A DNA stretch of 40,277 nt from Candidatus Eiseniibacteriota bacterium (GCA_043810925.1 JBDRNT010000115.1:1-40277), one strand, 5' to 3'. Shown: positions 1 to 26,640, counted from the stretch's first letter. The notes: generated by a model not told the origin, from the letters alone. Numbers and translations: made by a program.

Positions 1-293
1 GCCTCATCCACGGCCTCGACATGAAACGTGACATAGTCCGCACCGGCCTTTATGAAGCGCTCGAGATACGAATCGGGCTCCTCGATCATGAGATGCACAT
101 CGAGCTCGCTCCGGGCGGCTCTCTTGATCGCTTCGACGATAAACGGTCCGAGCGTAATGTTGGGTACGAAGTGGCCGTCCATCACATCGACATGGAGAAG
201 GTCGACACCGGCATCCTCAACCCGCTTGATCTCACCCTTTAGATCGGTGAAGTCAGCGGAAAGCAGTGAGGGTGCAATCCTGATAGCGCTCAC
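1..293 (-). CDS. rpe: Ribulose-phosphate 3-epimerase (5' part; runs off the window)
   Basis: Not in the ORF track. Manual minus-strand translation from GTG at 293 gives MSAIRIAPSLLSADF...LLHVDVMDGHFVPNITLGP...LDVHLMIEEP...ADYVTFHVEA, the Rpe signature motifs. The start overlaps the PASTA gene stop (GTGA). Confidence 0.95.
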   Translation of the reverse strand, partial: MSAIRIAPSLLSADFTDLKGEIKRVEDAGVDLLHVDVMDGHFVPNITLGPFIVEAIKRAARSELDVHLMIEEPDSYLERFIKAGADYVTFHVEAVDE

Positions 294-7164: not shown

Positions 7165-8237
7165 CAGAAGAGCTTTGACTGATCTTCCGGGGAACGCGCT
7201 TTACCAAAGTGCTTATGCGCGAGCTCGGTTACCTCTCGCCCTCGCGGGGTCCGCTCGAGAAAACCCTCCTGCACGAGATAGGGTTCGTAGACTTCCTCGA
7301 TGGTCTCCGCCTCTTCACCAACGGCCGTAGCCAGGGTGCTTATACCCACGGGGCCACCGCCGAACTTCTCCATTATGGTCGTCAGTATCCGCTTGTCCAT
7401 GTCATCAAGCCCGCATTCATCAACCTCAAGCGCCTCAAGACCGATCCGGGCGATATCCATCGTGATCTTGCCCTCGCCCTTGACCTGGGCGAAATCCCTT
7501 ATCCTTCTTAAGAGCCTGTTGGCAATCCGGGGAGTGCATCGTGCGCGCTCTGCAATTTCTGCGGCACCGTCATCATCGATCTCTATACCGAGGATACCGG
7601 CGGATCTTTCAACTATGAGTTTAAGCTCCCCGGGAGTGTAGAAGCCTATCCGGCTTACGACCCCGAATCTTGCCCGCATCGGCGACGTTATCATGCCCGC
7701 CCGGGTGGTTGCGCCGATCAGGGTGAACTTGTTGAGATTGAGTTTGATCGATCTTGCGCTTGGTCCCTTATCGATCATGATGTCGAGCGTAAAATCTTCC
7801 ATCGCCGGGTAGAGATACTCTTCGACAATGTGATTGAGCCTGTGAATCTCATCGATGAAGAGGACACAACCTTCCCTGAGATTGGTGAGTACCCCGGCCA
7901 GATCGCCCGGCCGCTCGATCACCGGACCCGATGTCGCGGTCATGGGAACACCTATCTCGTTTGCGATTATCGAAGCCAGGGTGGTCTTACCCAGGCCGGG
8001 GGGACCGTAGAAGAGGACGTGATCCAAGGCTTCGCCCCGCATTCTCGCGGCTTCAATGAATACCCTGAGATTGTCCTTGAGTTTCTCATGACCCACGAAT
8101 TCTTCAAGTGTCTTGGGTCTTAAGCTCGTATCAAGTTCCTGCTCGTCGACACCGGCCGTGGGGTCGGTCAGCCTCGAGACCGCATCATCCCGGACCGTAT
8201 GCAGGTGCTTTCTTTTAGGTGTGTCTGAGGGCACCAC
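7164..8237 (-). CDS. ruvB: Holliday junction branch migration helicase RuvB
   Basis: [49 protein letters not shown]. Confidence 0.97.
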
Positions 8238-11104: not shown

Positions 11105-12091
11105 TTAAGCCACATCGATCAGTTGCTGCTCTACCCTTGCGAGATCCATCTCACCGAGACCCATCTCGTGCCCTATCCGGATGTAACCGATGTCCTCTCC
11201 GGACAGTTCCTGCCCGGTCAGGTCCCGAAAAAGGCTTGCCCCGTAGGAATCGACGGCAACGGGATCGGTGCCGACTATCAGGTGCCGCCCCAGTATGACA
11301 TCCTCGGGCGTACCCGCGTTGGGGCCGTGCGCCTTGAGTACACGGAAGGCATCCATGATTGTAAGATGCGGCTTTATCACCGTGTTTATGTCCGCAAGTT
11401 TCTGATCGAAGTCCGGGTGAATGCTCTCACGATTCCCGCCTATGAGACCCATGAGATTCTTCATCCCCATCGTCAATCGCGCCATGCTGTGATGCTTTAA
11501 GACGGGCACATTGATCAGGACGTCGGCATCAAACGCATCCGCATACATCTTCCAGGACTTGATGCTCTTGCCCTCGGGAATGGCCACGTCTTCGAATTTC
11601 CGCTCGTCCATATAGCTGATGTTCCCGCCGGCGCGCCCCACGGCTTCCTCGATACCGCTCAGCCGGTAAGTCCGACTCACGGGATTGCAGGGGTAGTCGA
11701 ACACATTGACCTGCTTGGCACCGGCGTCCTGGCACAACTCGATGATGGCCTCGACAACAAAGGGGTTGGTGTTCGCTGCCTGTTCGGGTCTCCGGCTCCA
11801 CGCGATATTGGGTTTGACCACAACTGTGTCATCCTTCTTCACGAAACGCTCAATGCCGCCGACTGCCTGGATCGCAGCCCTCACCAGCTTCATCGGGTCA
11901 TCACTGCCCCTGGCGATCGCAAGCCCGATATCCTGCCGGGCGGCCCCCTTCATGGTACGCACAACCGATGCCCCGCCGGCGACCTTCTCCTTCTCCCCAC
12001 CACATCCAATCAGGTGAGGGCATGTGGCGGCGAGCCCCGCAACGGCCATGCTCTTAAGGAATGCTCGTCTGTGCAGTTTGTTATCTTCCAT
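11105..12091 (-). CDS. DUF362-domain protein with Tat signal (possible lipoprotein)
   Basis: HRRAFLK twin-Arg signal and LIGC lipobox-like motif. VVVKPNIAW, NTNP, PVLKHHS, MKNLMG, DPVAVD. Confidence 0.88.
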   Translation of the reverse strand: MEDNKLHRRAFLKSMAVAGLAATCPHLIGCGGEKEKVAGGASVVRTMKGAARQDIGLAIARGSDDPMKLVRAAIQAVGGIERFVKKDDTVVVKPNIAWSRRPEQAANTNPFVVEAIIELCQDAGAKQVNVFDYPCNPVSRTYRLSGIEEAVGRAGGNISYMDERKFEDVAIPEGKSIKSWKMYADAFDADVLINVPVLKHHSMARLTMGMKNLMGLIGGNRESIHPDFDQKLADINTVIKPHLTIMDAFRVLKAHGPNAGTPEDVILGRHLIVGTDPVAVDSYGASLFRDLTGQELSGEDIGYIRIGHEMGLGEMDLARVEQQLIDVA

Positions 12092-13074: not shown

Positions 13075-14706
13075 TCAGACTCCCCTTCCGCCGGAATAGC
13101 GCTCCGGGTGGCGGTCTTCACCGCGCGCGGTGACACGGATGGCCGGCTCATCCTTAAGAGGGCACTTCTTTTCACAGATACCGCAGCCTATGCAGGTCTC
13201 GGTCACAACGTAGGGTCGTTTGACAATCACCGTCCTGTTTGTTTCCTGCTCTAAGACTTCGGTTTCCCAGAACTTGATCGATTTCTCCGGAGTCGGGCAG
13301 TGCTCCTCGCATACGAGGCAATTGAGGTTTTCATTCCACGGATAGCACTTGTTCTTGTTGAAATAGGCGGTGCCGATCTTGGTCTCCTTCTTCTCCTCAA
13401 GCGAGAGTCTCCCGATGGCACCCGTAGGACAGACCTCCGAACACGCGTTACACTCATAATCGCAGTAGCCCACGGCAGGCACGAGTTTGGGTGTGCCTAC
13501 ACCCTCTAAGCCGGCTTCAAAAACCGCCGGCTGAAGACCGTTCGTGGGACAGACCTTCATGCACTCCGCACACCGGATGCATCTGTCCAGGAACTCCTCT
13601 TCGGGAAGAGCTCCCGGCGGCCGGATCAACCACGGTGGGAAGTCACGATCGGATATCTTGAGTTTGAGCAAAGGTACCGTGACAGCGGCCACAGCAGCCG
13701 CTTCGAGAAACCGGCGTTTCGATAGATCGAGCCCTGCGGGAATCGCCCGCCTCTCCTTCCGGATACTCCTGATGGGAGACTGGAATTTGAGCCGCACGGC
13801 GTCCTCGGGGCAGACATCCTCGCAGTTAAAGCATTCGACGCACTCCTGCGGCCAGTATCCGCCGGCCTTCTCGGCAATCGCAGCGGTCTTGCACTCGCGG
13901 ACGCAACCGTTACACTCCGTACACTTGTCCCGATTGACGACCCACCGCAGGAAGGTGGCCTTAGAAAGGAGTCCAAGCATGGCACCGAGCGGGCAGAGAT
14001 AGCGGCACCAGAATCTCTGGTGCAGGAATGAAAGCGCCAGTATCAGCGCAAAGAAGGCAAACGAGATGTGATGGAGTGCCGTGATCGGCTGGTACCCGAT
14101 CTCAGGATTCGGAACGAACACGTACTGCTTGAGGAAGTCGTACACGGGCTCCGAGATCCGGTTCACGACGGGGACCTGCCAGAGGGGATCGAGAACGGCC
14201 CTGGCGGCGTAAGTCAGGTAGGGATAGATGGCGACAGCATAGCTTCGGGTCGCGATCGGAATCGGGTCCATCAACCATGCAATTTGAGTGCTGAAGAGTG
14301 CAGCCACCAGGAATGCACCCAGGATGTAATACTTGATATTCCGGAGACCGCCTGAATGCATGGTCACGGGCTTGCTTCGCTTCTTCCGTCTTCTCCCGGC
14401 GATGCGATCCCAGATGTCAATCGTGGTCCCGAGCGGACAGACCCAGTTACAGAAGAATCTGCCCAGTATGATCGTGAGAACGATCACGACGAGAGCGGGC
14501 ACAAACTTAGGGAAGAAGCCAGCCGCGCTACGCGCCGCCATCATCGCGGAGACGGCGGCCAGCGGGTCAAGGCGCAGAAAGGTGTCGGGCGGAAGCCAGG
14601 TCTCAACGGGTGAGACTGTCCTGATCAGCAGGATCAGGAAGAGCACGAACACCGCAACCTGAACCCCACGCCTCACTAATTTCGGTACTGATTTCGGTGA
14701 CACCAT
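13075..14706 (-). CDS. Membrane polyferredoxin (NapH/MauN-like membrane part fused to a NapG/MauM-like 4Fe-4S domain)
   Basis: GRFFCNWVCPLG and RFWCRYLCPLG, several CxxCxxCxxxCP clusters, and an internal KRRFLE before RPPGAL. The start is either the ATG at 14706 (inside the repeat) or the inferred ancestral GTG at 14676. Confidence 0.88.
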   Translation of the reverse strand: MVSPKSVPKLVRRGVQVAVFVLFLILLIRTVSPVETWLPPDTFLRLDPLAAVSAMMAARSAAGFFPKFVPALVVIVLTIILGRFFCNWVCPLGTTIDIWDRIAGRRRKKRSKPVTMHSGGLRNIKYYILGAFLVAALFSTQIAWLMDPIPIATRSYAVAIYPYLTYAARAVLDPLWQVPVVNRISEPVYDFLKQYVFVPNPEIGYQPITALHHISFAFFALILALSFLHQRFWCRYLCPLGAMLGLLSKATFLRWVVNRDKCTECNGCVRECKTAAIAEKAGGYWPQECVECFNCEDVCPEDAVRLKFQSPIRSIRKERRAIPAGLDLSKRRFLEAAAVAAVTVPLLKLKISDRDFPPWLIRPPGALPEEEFLDRCIRCAECMKVCPTNGLQPAVFEAGLEGVGTPKLVPAVGYCDYECNACSEVCPTGAIGRLSLEEKKETKIGTAYFNKNKCYPWNENLNCLVCEEHCPTPEKSIKFWETEVLEQETNRTVIVKRPYVVTETCIGCGICEKKCPLKDEPAIRVTARGEDRHPERYSGGRGV

Positions 14707-14779
14707 ACTTAATTACCTACCAGTTTCGGTGACACCATACTTAATTATCCGCCGGTTTCGGTGACACCGTACCTAATTA
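14692..14779 (+). repeat. Left array: 3 direct copies of 24-bp TTTCGGTGACACCATACTTAATTA, 32-bp period
   Basis: Copies at 14692-14715, 14724-14747 and 14756-14779 (third has 2 mismatches), with 8-nt linkers. A partial copy lies at 14679-14686 and a degenerate one near 14807-14827. Confidence 0.95.
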
Positions 14780-14842
14780 TCTGCATCCATGAGATGTCCT
14801 CCCGGCGGTTTCATGCCACACCAAACCATGTGTAGAAAACTC

Positions 14843-14871
14843 TTGAAAGATCCTGACCATGGTGCTACCAT
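14843..14871 (+). promoter_or_regulatory. Putative sigma70 promoter of the transposase (near-leaderless)
   Basis: TTGAAA (14843-48), N17, TACCAT (14866-71) with TG extension. The ATG at 14880 follows 8 nt later and has no SD. Confidence 0.5.
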
Positions 14872-14879
14872 ACCATGGG

Positions 14880-15587
14880 ATGACGAGAGTGGCAAGGGTG
14901 GTGGTACCGGATATTCCGCATCATGTTGCCCAGCGTGGTAACCGCAGGCAGCAGACTTTCTTCTGCGACTCCGACTATCGTGCTTACATTCGTATTATGT
15001 CGGAATTCTGCAGCCGACACGAAGTCGCGATATGGGCATATTGTCTGATGCCGAACCACGTGCACCTGGTGGCGGTACCCGCCACCATGGACGGACTGCG
15101 ACTGGCTATTGGGAAAGCCCATCGCCATTACACATTCGCGATCAACGCCCGGATGGAATGGAAAGGTCACCTGTGGCAGGGGCGGTTCGCATCCTGCCCG
15201 CTGGACGAGCGGCATCTGCTTGCAGCAGTCCGCTACATCGAACAGAATCCCGTTCGCGCTGACCTTGTTAAGTGTCCCGAGGAGTGGCCCTGGAGCAGTG
15301 CCGGCGCGCACCTCTCCGGCAGAGACGATGATCTGGTGTCGGCACAGCCGGTTCTTGAAATCATGCCACATTGGGAGGAGTTCCTGCGTCTTGAAGTCTC
15401 AAGAAATCCAGATTTTGGCAGGCACGAGCGAACCGGCCGCCCACTGGGCGATGAAGCCTTCATCGATTGCTGCGAGAGAGCCACGAACCGCACGCTGAGA
15501 CCCCGGAAGCGTGGGCCTAGGCCTTCCAAGAAGTACAGAATAGCACCGTGGTTGAATATGGCTTCGCCGAGACAGCCTCATAAATAA
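14880..15587 (+). CDS. REP-associated tyrosine transposase (RAYT; Y1_Tnp/IS200-IS605 TnpA superfamily)
   Basis: MTRVARVVVPDIPHHVAQRGNRRQ, YCLMPNHVHL (HUH), GHLWQGRF, RYIEQNPVRA (catalytic Tyr), WPWSSA, TGRPLG. The ORF track starts at 14859. Confidence 0.92.
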   Translation: MTRVARVVVPDIPHHVAQRGNRRQQTFFCDSDYRAYIRIMSEFCSRHEVAIWAYCLMPNHVHLVAVPATMDGLRLAIGKAHRHYTFAINARMEWKGHLWQGRFASCPLDERHLLAAVRYIEQNPVRADLVKCPEEWPWSSAGAHLSGRDDDLVSAQPVLEIMPHWEEFLRLEVSRNPDFGRHERTGRPLGDEAFIDCCERATNRTLRPRKRGPRPSKKYRIAPWLNMASPRQPHK

Positions 15588-15636
15588 GCTTGGTGTCACC
15601 GAAATAGACCCACAATTAAGTTTGGTGTCACCGAAA
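15549..15636 (-). repeat. Right array: inverted copies of the same 24-mer, 32-bp period
   Basis: Matches to TAATTAAGTATGGTGTCACCGAAA are 21/24 at 15581-15604, 22/24 at 15613-15636, and 16/24 for a degenerate copy at 15549-15572 inside the transposase 3' end. Confidence 0.92.
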
Positions 15637-16566
15637 TTAGAGGGCTGACAGATAACCGGTGGCGTGGCGGATGTCGTCGGCCGAGACGGATGAGGCAAGT
15701 TCGAGGACCTTTATGACAGGCCGGTTTATCTTGGCGAAGACGCTTGAGAAATCTATTTCTCCGGTTCCAGGGGCCTTATGATCGCCAATGAAGACGGAGT
15801 CATGGATGTGCACGCCGAAGATGTATTTCTCGAGACGATCAAGCACCTCCAGGTGAGAAGAAAAACCGAGCACCTCCTCCACGTGGGCATGGCCCAGATC
15901 GTGCCAGTAGCGCAGTCTCGCCGATGGTATCTCCTGCTTGATGGCAACCACCTCATCGGGAAGCGGGATCTGATTGTGGAAGTACCGGTTCTCGATGCAC
16001 ACCGTGATACCCGAGTCTTCCGACCGGGCAAGCAGGTCCTTGAGGCTTCTCACAGCGGAATCGAGGAAAGCGGCCTTTCGGGCATCTCTGGCTTTCTTTA
16101 CACTCTCGCGTATCCTGACGGCGTCCCCGGACGCAACACCCGCGGCCTTGACGACGTCTGCGAGCTCTTGAAAGAAGCCCCGACCCGTATCGATCTCACC
16201 CATATGAAGGATAAGGGCCCTGGCTCCCAGTCTCTTCGCAAGTTCAAGCGACCTCAGGGTCAGATTCACAGCTTCGGATCGTTCCGGCTCATCCGGTGAG
16301 GAGAGTGAAAGCGTGTCGCCGCCCCAGTTTGAGGGCTTATTGCTTGCGGGAAGCGGCGCGAAGTTATGAACACTCGACACCGTGATCCGGCCGGATCGGA
16401 CCGCCGCTTCGATCGCGGGAATCGCGTTTTCGCTCACCCTGTACTCGATCTCTAAACGCTTAAATCCCAGGGCGGCGATCTCATCGACGATCCGCGTGCC
16501 GTCTTCAATACCGGCACTGTTCCAGGAGGTCGACATGCCAAGATCAGTGAGAACCATACGCATCAC
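15637..16566 (-). CDS. Sugar-phosphate isomerase/epimerase / AP-endonuclease-2 TIM-barrel protein
   Basis: SSVHNFAP, LILHMG, IENRY, WHDLGHA, VHIHD, DHKAPGTGEIDF, VLE metal-binding pattern. Confidence 0.85.
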   Translation of the reverse strand: MMRMVLTDLGMSTSWNSAGIEDGTRIVDEIAALGFKRLEIEYRVSENAIPAIEAAVRSGRITVSSVHNFAPLPASNKPSNWGGDTLSLSSPDEPERSEAVNLTLRSLELAKRLGARALILHMGEIDTGRGFFQELADVVKAAGVASGDAVRIRESVKKARDARKAAFLDSAVRSLKDLLARSEDSGITVCIENRYFHNQIPLPDEVVAIKQEIPSARLRYWHDLGHAHVEEVLGFSSHLEVLDRLEKYIFGVHIHDSVFIGDHKAPGTGEIDFSSVFAKINRPVIKVLELASSVSADDIRHATGYLSAL

Positions 16567-25978: not shown

Positions 25979-26640
25979 AGAGATCCTTCGCACTCTCATC
26001 AGTTGCACACATTGCTTTTATCGCGCTCATAGTCATACCGGGCTATCGCAAAACCTTCTATCTGAGCTCGGAGGTAATCAGCGTCAAACTGGTAAGTGAG
26101 GAACACCCGGCCCCCAAGCAGGTGGTCAAGGCACCCCCCCCTAAAGAGGAGAAGGTAGAACCCAAGAAGGAAGAGCCGAAGGCCAAGATAGCTTACGAGC
26201 CCGAGAAGAAGACCCGCAAGACCGAGACAGAGAAGGCACCGCCCTCGAAGGCCAAGACGGAACCGAAGAAAACCGAGCCCGCCAGGCCGACACCCGCAAA
26301 GACCTCCGCAACGGGTGGCAGCGAGTCGAAGGTGCGCGTCGATGACAAGGATTTCAGGTTTGCGTACTATCTTGAGATTGTCAAGGAGAGGATCAGCAGC
26401 AACTGGTCTCCCCCACCCGTCGCAGGCGCCGCCGAAGGTGTTGTGTCCACGGTCTACTTCAAGATCTCAAGGGACGGACACTTGATGGATGTCAAGATTG
26501 AGAAGACCTCCGAGTTTGACTTATTCGACAGATCCGCCCTGAGGGCGGTTGATAGATCAAGCCCGCTGCCCCCCCTCCCTGCCGGCTTCAAGGGCAGCTG
26601 GCTCGGCGTCCATTTCGAATTCGAGCAGAAGTCAGGATGA
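25975..26640 (+). CDS. tolA: TolA/TonB-family energy transducer
   Basis: TM helix with S..AH motif, Lys/Pro/Glu-rich linker, C-terminal YY...I..NW...FD.SALRAV...PLPPLP. Confidence 0.8.
   Translation: MKRSFALSSVAHIAFIALIVIPGYRKTFYLSSEVISVKLVSEEHPAPKQVVKAPPPKEEKVEPKKEEPKAKIAYEPEKKTRKTETEKAPPSKAKTEPKKTEPARPTPAKTSATGGSESKVRVDDKDFRFAYYLEIVKERISSNWSPPPVAGAAEGVVSTVYFKISRDGHLMDVKIEKTSEFDLFDRSALRAVDRSSPLPPLPAGFKGSWLGVHFEFEQKSG

Follow-up and report, generated by a model that had tools for sequence, protein, structure and literature searches.

Background

This paper concerns a Y1 HUH tyrosine transposase gene and the short repeats that flank it in a stretch of 40,277 nt from Candidatus Eiseniibacteriota bacterium (GCA_043810925.1, JBDRNT010000115.1:1-40277), here called the window, to which all coordinates without a further label refer. 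Genes of this kind resemble those of the RAYTs, the tyrosine transposases associated with repetitive extragenic palindromic (REP) sequences. The gene is best compared with the TIRYT group (subclass 2.1), which has been described as second in size among the branches of the Y1 HUH transposase superfamily. Full-text searches of the literature brought up no biochemical work on these genes.

Di Nocera, De Gregorio and Rocco (2013, BMC Genomics 14:522; PMC3733652) gave the name TIRYT to RAYT-like genes flanked by long inverted repeats and the name TIRtron to the units that they form. Many of the terminal inverted repeats (TIRs), but not all, share GGGGWSAS, and a TIR family may include single copies, dimers and groups. 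One genome may have several TIRYT genes whose TIRs differ, and the families are described there as moderately abundant (PMC3733652). In the sections of Quentin et al. (2018) that deal with these genes, 20 of 26 TIRYTs fall in subclass 2.1, which is characterized by NHVH or NH[YF]H, W[EQ], YIELNP or Y[IV]HLNP, a median length of 238 aa and a C-terminal extension resembling Bac_DnaA_C, HTH_23 or HTH_28 (PMC6006769). The equivalent of subclass 2.1 in the account of Bertels et al. (2017) is Group 1, presented there as the most insertion sequence (IS)-like of the RAYTs, with 6.3% duplicates and 1.2% on plasmids, whereas RAYTs in general are viewed as domesticated (PMC5581495). The first-pass annotation of the window had put the locus forward as a possibly new subclass; the class had already been reported in 2013 as TIRYT/TIRtron.

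The locus is probably a TIRtron, that is, an intact Y1 gene of the TIRYT kind together with inverted cognate 25-nt modules which have spread in trans and without target duplication. The evidence comes from the locus itself, from the distribution of its repeats over the genome and from 160 homologous loci.

The repeats and the gene

The features of the locus are given below, where F1 is the name of the repeat family. The limits of the F1 units were taken from the consensus of 63 units of the genome.

14677-14688, + strand: head-only partial repeat of 12 nt, TAATTTCGGTAC, the outermost left feature
14690-14715, + strand: F1 unit L1, core 14692
14722-14747, + strand: F1 unit L2, core 14724, 32 bp past L1
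14754-14779, + strand: F1 unit L3, core 14756, with 2 mismatches in the 24-mer, 32 bp past L2
14843-14871, + strand: sigma-70-like promoter match, TTGAAA-17 nt-TACCAT, 9/12 positions, a match to the consensus only
14880-15587, + strand: Y1 HUH tyrosine nuclease/transposase gene, 235 aa from the ATG at 14880, in a frame open from 14859
15550-15574, - strand: degenerate F1 unit R3, 16/24 identical, within the 3' end of the gene
15582-15606, - strand: F1 unit R2, core 15592-15604
15614-15639, - strand: F1 unit R1, core 15624-15636

The left array consists of three direct copies, of which two (cores 14692 and 14724) are exact 24-mers. The right array is in the opposite orientation, its cores at 15624 and 15592 have 2 and 3 mismatches to the 24-mer, and its degenerate third copy has its core at 15560. 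The spacing between neighbouring copies is 32 bp throughout both arrays, so that the three left, two right and one degenerate inverted copies reported earlier are all present as described. The 13-mer core gave 7 matches in the window at up to 2 mismatches, against 0.91 expected, and this number was reached in none of 100 shuffles; moreover, the exact matches (5/5) are all at the transposase locus. The inverted arms around the gene extend over 27 nt at 93% and 57 nt at 79%. At the outermost positions ATTTCGGT (14679-14686) and ACCGAAAT (15630-15637) are indeed perfect inverted repeats with TA adjoining each, but the left one comes from the 12-nt partial copy and not from a full unit. By eye alone, a degenerate fourth left unit might be read at about 14807-14836, but we do not claim it.

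The repeats do not resemble those of the classical RAYTs. No GTAG tag occurs in the window repeats, and the folding energies of single units, -0.6 and -0.8 kcal/mol with z about -0.15, amount to no meaningful hairpin. The arrays folded no better than their shuffles (z -0.8 to -1.4), and Rfam gave no match on 14400-15900 at E values up to 1. The lack of a tag and of a strong hairpin had been noticed correctly at first pass.

The start codon of the gene was set by homology, as 40/40 aligned relatives begin there, and its final 13-15 codons extend into the degenerate right repeat. The open reading frame (ORF) matched Y1_Tnp of Pfam (3.1e-12), and with NCBIfam it scored below the cut-off both for REP_Tyr_transpos (NF047646; 69 bits, cut-off 80) and for transpos_IS200 (NF033573; 16.4 bits, cut-off 55). 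In an alignment of 41 sequences H60 and H62 (NHVH), Y119, N123 and P124 are invariant, H60/H62 being the HUH motif and Y119 the catalytic tyrosine. The protein carries PNHVHL, LWQGRF and RYIEQNP, the last with Q for the L of YIELNP, and the alignment also shows a proximal WSS motif with little or no variation and a conserved tail, HERTGRPLG...GR.L.P.K.G. The AlphaFold model built from this alignment has a predicted confidence (pLDDT) of 90.6, with C-terminal helices predicted at residues 141-202. Its best match among solved folds is Escherichia coli TnpA-REP with its REP hairpin (4ER8, E 4.4e-8, template modelling score 0.74 on the target), the transposases of ISDra2 and IS608 ranking behind it, and 4ER8 was also the best solved structure found by phmmer (E 8.8e-4). 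By its motifs and length the protein fits subclass 2.1 of Quentin et al., that is, Group 1 of Bertels et al.

Dispersal of the F1 repeats

Searching the whole genome with the core at up to one mismatch gave 73 matches, against 2 for the reversed control. Sixty-three of them are full 25-nt units with the consensus (T)AATTTCGGTGACACCAWACTTAATT(A); the other 10, in which the tail is absent, were excluded. The full units form 33 clusters. Fourteen are singles and 10 are direct arrays of 2-4 units; simple tail-to-tail pairs number 8, and there are one + - - group and the gene locus itself. Of the 63 units, 58 are away from the gene locus. Neighbours in the same orientation are spaced 31 or 32 bp in 20 of 20 cases, and neighbours in opposite orientation are tail-to-tail (+ then -) in 10 of 10, six of them at 39-40 bp. 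The gene between its arrays shows the same tail-to-tail arrangement as the gene-less dimers. Only 2/33 clusters are in a stop-free frame of at least 249 aa; the other 31 are probably extragenic, since the stop-free frames that span them are shorter than this. The GGGGACAC core is found in 5/63 units of the genome and is also read by the homologues.

This distribution bears on the first explanation offered for the locus, namely an autonomous transposon whose enzyme recognizes three phased, iteron-like duplex sites with a GGTG-A-CACC dyad and which inserts at TA with duplication. The window does have the arrays with their 32-bp phase, the dyad and TA at the flanks. However, with most units lying elsewhere, and with their same-orientation neighbours there all at 31/32 bp, the repeats are not the element's own phased ends as had been supposed, and equal phased arrays stand at 10 gene-less loci. 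Taken with the results on the homologues and on the target site given below, we regard this explanation as very improbable.

A second gene-repeat pair is present in the same genome. At C14:2789-3647 (L032 1425-2283) a 222-aa paralogue, 55% identical to the window protein, lies between the two copies of a perfect 24-nt inverted repeat, TAATTCGGTACCAGCTTACAAATT, which heads a second repeat family related to F1. With up to 5 mismatches allowed, this family (TAATTCGGTACCAGCTTACAAATTA) has 54 matches in the genome and the reversed control has 0; the family comprises three sub-variants and occurs as singles and tail-to-tail pairs. We consider C14:2789-3647 to be a second TIRtron. In addition, a third Y1_Tnp paralogue of 293 aa, 38% identical, was noticed at C15:6403-7284 (L033 1486-2367). 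Its C-terminus has weak matches to HTH_38, HTH_3 and HTH_23 (E 0.008-0.02), and by sequence it is assigned to the long form of subclass 2.1.

The end sequence in the wider family

The homologous loci comprise 80 from metagenomes (53-63% identity) and 80 from species-representative genomes (51-63%), the latter belonging to Desulfobacterota, Alpha- and Gammaproteobacteria, Nitrospirota, Planctomycetota, Armatimonadota, Elusimicrobia and others. In metagenome contigs and species-representative genomes alike the closest protein matches are 63% identical, so the history of the exact element is not traceable. Both sides could be tested at 134 loci, and at 102 of these GGGGACACCATAC, with up to 3 mismatches allowed, was found inverted on both (54/63 metagenome and 48/71 species-representative loci). 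The upstream motif stands 52-59 nt before the start codon in 64/84 metagenome matches. The usual layout of the family is therefore one inverted copy of gAATTCcGGGGACACCATACTTAATT per side, about 55 nt from the gene, and gAATTCcGGGGACACCATACTTAATT is also the consensus of 47 single-copy elements.

The window unit differs from the family consensus at two or three positions. The GGTG-A-CACC dyad, which had been taken as the core of each copy, is among these local changes: it is present in the window, but the core of the family consensus, GGGGACACC, is not a dyad. More than one copy on a side was found at 27/134 loci, with periods from roughly 18 to 72 nt, which indicates that the 32-bp phase is no family trait. 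Both results speak against the autonomous transposon with phased sites. Many homologous loci have short head reiterations just outside the TIR, comparable to 14677-14688.

In the consensus of the single-copy elements TTGAC follows directly after the left copy, and it is likely to be a -35 box. Enzyme binding at the left end could thus repress its own promoter. In the consensus of the left ends of L085-L164 TTGAC is placed about 35 nt before the start codon.

Covariation between the two ends of the module was assessed on 165 gene-proximal units; a scan with a loose motif, whose 384 'units' were swamped by chance matches, was dropped. Head (-7..-3) and tail (15..19) are complementary beyond shuffles at 3/5 pairs. 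At the pair -4/16, T-A occurs in 68 units and A-T in 41, a count reached in 0/1000 shuffles, although the kinship of the sequences means that the shuffle test overstates this signal. The head/tail variants include GAGTT/AACTC, GAAAT/ATTTC and CAATT/AATTG, and TAATT/AATTA in the window. Among 45 protein clusters the complement is perfect in 9, and 15 depart from it by a single mismatch or a single G-T wobble, which makes it a tendency and not a rule. It would fit a 5-bp stem in single-stranded DNA that is stabilised by protein, or else two duplex half-sites; a dimer on two such half-sites would also suit the autonomous transposon set out above.

Mobility and target site

All 160 loci were screened for pairs with at least 85% nucleotide identity over at least 500 nt, and 29 pairs were obtained. 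In 21 of them the similar stretch is limited to 709-770 bp, and at least 100 bases past both ends are unmatched; of the others, 4 are too near a contig end to judge and 4 extend into shared flanks. The confined similarity mostly starts 52-68 nt before the gene (22 nt in three L193 pairs) and ends 41-84 nt past the protein match, and in junction views the block ends 6-7 nt outside GGGG. Because the similarity halts at the repeats in unrelated contexts, the block of about 750 bp from TIR to TIR is a discrete mobile unit in the family. The clearest within-genome transposition in the set is that of L232, L239 and L242, three copies of about 740-750 bp with 94.7-96.6% identity on one 3.7-Mb contig of a Thermoguttaceae metagenome-assembled genome, two of them about 5 kb apart.

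The part of the earlier proposal in which a RAYT-type gene with non-hairpin, non-GTAG ends moves as a unit therefore holds at the level of the family, and the block movement of relatives would agree with an autonomous transposon too. Insertion at TA does not hold. The TA belongs to the repeat, as the unit consensus itself has TA at -7/-6 (A at -6 in 55/63 units, T at -7 in 32/63). At the corresponding position homologue ends have TA in 16/94 and GA in 36/94, with TA at both ends in 1/47 elements. Moreover, in the 47 elements with one copy per side no direct duplication of 2-4 nt at offsets -5 to -12 was found above the shuffled control, so that a TA target duplication is not supported.

From these patterns we infer the following mode of spread. 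The module, which is no REP hairpin, has AATT at its head and at its tail and GG(T/G)GACACC as its core, and the enzyme most likely recognizes these 25 nt sequence-specifically, whether as single strand or as duplex. By analogy with E. coli TnpA-REP, one strand would be cut at the module edge and rejoined without target duplication. Acting in trans, the enzyme has probably spread gene-less modules over the genome, where there are 14 singles, 10 direct arrays and, with the gene locus counted, 9 tail-to-tail groups. In relatives the TIR-gene-TIR block of about 750 bp moves as a whole as well. The triple arrays of the window can be seen as local reiterations of a 32-nt module-plus-spacer, an extended form of the short terminal reiterations of the relatives.

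Comparison with a genome of the same genus

The genome G001 belongs to the same genus and is 86% complete. It contains no orthologue of the window gene, the best match (56%) being the orthologue of the C14 paralogue. Exact F1 cores number 54 in the present genome and 5 in G001, and none were found in the other 11 genomes of the taxonomic family. Three G001 units are at sites orthologous to singletons of the present genome, which implies that the F1 family is older than the split of both species. At two further loci tested, a dimer (C94) and a four-unit array (C38), the units are absent in G001. The locus of the C14 paralogue is syntenic in G001, with 87% nucleotide identity over 3.6 kb and about 150 nt extra in the present genome, and the second repeat family has 57 matches in G001 against 0 for the control.

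The element of the window is bordered by the following two genes.

13075-14676, - strand: NapH/NapG-like polyferredoxin gene, with its 5' end against the left array
15637-16566, - strand: xylose-isomerase-like TIM-barrel gene (AP_endonuc_2)

In G001 these two genes are adjacent and there is no element between them, as an autonomous transposon would also lead one to expect. The site differs, however, from the empty site CCTCACTAGAGGGC which had been predicted for such a transposon: the spacer is of 53 nt and the polyferredoxin gene has 16 more N-terminal codons, G001 being the only syntenic relative. Homology to G001 resumes exactly at the stop codon of the TIM-barrel gene and at GTGAGGCGT (14668-14676). 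No clean empty site was found elsewhere, as the 11 other family genomes have the TIM-barrel gene or parts of it and no polyferredoxin match in the loci compared. Two read runs covered small shares of the stretch (0.10 and 0.04, as contigs); their short pieces showed no joints, which speaks neither for nor against an excision or an empty site.

A second alternative is a domesticated and immobile gene; host processes such as slippage or recombination would keep or expand the units and their arrays, whose role would be regulatory or terminator-like or lie in protein binding. Bertels et al. take RAYTs in general to be domesticated (PMC5581495), and the C14 paralogue with its repeats is at the same locus in both species, its 3.6 kb being conserved apart from the extra nucleotides. 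The three singletons kept at orthologous sites, the probably extragenic position of 31/33 clusters, the single copy of the gene and the likeness of the spacers within each array, which local duplication predicts, would also agree with it. On the other hand the catalytic residues are intact and near-identical blocks of the family stand in differing contexts. In addition, the strict tail-to-tail order (10/10) and the excess of exact cores over G001 suit enzyme-driven spread better than slippage alone. We hold this alternative to be unlikely, although less so than the autonomous transposon, and we prefer the TIRtron with modules spread in trans.

Several points weigh against that preference. The gene is single-copy in its own genome, and there is no sign that this particular copy ever moved. 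Its absence from G001 could be due to loss or to incomplete assembly; the G001 spacer holds a possible relic unit (local alignment score 22, matched by 3/500 shuffles), so gain here and loss in G001 are not distinguishable. Spacers are similar within each array and differ from array to array, which suggests that arrays grow by local copying of the 32-nt unit-plus-spacer, a kind of duplication for which the enzyme may not be needed. The TIRtron reading also does not account for the terminal head reiterations or for the constant 31/32-bp period, whose 6-7 nt spacer is seen in dimers too. The core of the window units, GGTGACAC, agrees with GGGGWSAS at 7/8 positions. For residues 126-235 Pfam gave no Bac_DnaA_C, HTH_23, HTH_28 or other helix-turn-helix (HTH) family at E up to 10. 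Moreover, where Quentin et al. treat subclass 2.1 they report no REP-like sequences near its genes and do not consider these to be insertion sequences (PMC6006769).

Neighbouring genes and other repeats

The TAA stop codon of the TIM-barrel gene (15637-15639) coincides with the head TAATTT of the right repeat R1, and its relative in G001 has TAG at the same codon position. The polyferredoxin gene is without the 16 N-terminal codons found in G001 (window 14668-14706). Its longest ORF begins at an ATG inside repeat unit L1 (MVSPKSVPKL...), and a GTG at 14676 is exactly at the edge of the element. The repeat array may therefore provide this downstream gene with its start codon or with signals for its expression.

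Other repeats were seen next to F1 units. A palindromic GCGTCGGGGTTCCACCCCCGAC-like repeat with a GC-rich hairpin adjoins F1 units at C95:~11755-11785, C12:~50275-50300 and C114:~7840-7870; it may be a separate REP-like family, possibly CGTC-tagged. At C94:~26100-26210 and in L165 of G001 there is a palindromic element with the arms GGGGTCAGAGCTCGAAAATT and AATTTTCGAGCTCTGACCCC, which encloses a 25-nt hairpin in G001 and has the F1 dimer as its centre in the present genome, with both junctions at AATT. Related arms are near further F1 units (C171, C145). At C38:~13255-13610 (L007 1490-1840) the present genome has about 330 nt that are absent from G001; this insert begins with the four-unit F1 array, contains other repeats and is apparently bracketed by direct GATCAA copies resembling a target-site duplication.

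Significance and comparison with known systems

It is conceivable, though we would put it forward only tentatively, that TIRtrons form an unrecognized family of active insertion sequences, with a Y1 HUH enzyme, a block of about 750 bp, non-hairpin 25-nt ends (5-bp head-tail complement and GGGGACACC core) and no target duplication. The head reiterations, tail-to-tail mini-elements and exactly phased 32-nt arrays of the present genome would then be footprints of the chemistry by which ends are cleaved and rejoined. If this is true, the mode of transposition would be distinct both from the hairpin recognition of IS200/IS605 and from REP/RAYT. The locus and its 160 relatives give a sharply defined and deeply conserved end sequence, a fixed architecture in which about 40 nt separate the gene from the TIR on either side, and evidence for movement of the block with no target duplication, and the present genome and G001 are a natural pair in which repeat number tracks the presence of the gene. 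Recognition of single strand or duplex, and the position of the cut, are directly testable with short oligonucleotides.

With the IS200/IS605 elements (IS608, ISDra2) the locus shares the HUH/Y1 fold and the absence of a target-site duplication and, in the wider family, a small element moved as a unit. It differs in having inverted-repeat ends where IS200/IS605 has asymmetric subterminal hairpins, Y---NP in place of Y---Q, and no tnpB. An IS200/IS605 identity was rejected on the tyrosine motif, the lack of hairpins and the NF033573 score.

The likeness to the REPtrons, or REPIN-RAYT systems (TnpA-REP, 4ER8; Pseudomonas Group 2/3), is closer. In both, a single-copy Y1 gene is flanked by inverted copies of an extragenic dispersed repeat, inverted dimers occur and each paralogue has its own repeat family, and the best structural match of the window protein is found here. 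Unlike these systems, the locus has no GT[AG]G tag or stable hairpin, the protein falls short of the NF047646 cut-off (69 bits against 80) and the repeats form direct arrays of fixed period. For the first of these reasons and for the NF047646 score it was rejected as a classical Group 2/3 RAYT.

With subclass 2.1/Group 1 the protein has in common NHVH, W[EQ], Y---NP, WSS, a length of 235 aa against the median of 238, the lack of a REP hairpin nearby and a patchy spread over phyla. It differs in that no HTH tail was detected. Moreover, Quentin et al. describe neither IS features nor associated repeats for the subclass, whereas the present gene has a dispersed cognate repeat family and its relatives occur as discrete multi-copy blocks.

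The closest agreement is with the TIRYT/TIRtron system as described in PMC3733652, which likewise has a RAYT-like Y1 gene, inverted repeats that are neither GTAG-tagged nor hairpins, and dispersal as singles, dimers and groups. Relative to that description, the core GGTGACAC has one mismatch to GGGGWSAS and the repeats stand three per side at an exact 32-bp period. A TIR as close as AATTCCGGGGACACCATACTTAATT may already be contained in that account. The element is therefore not new in kind: it is an intact TIRtron with an unusually rich cognate repeat family.

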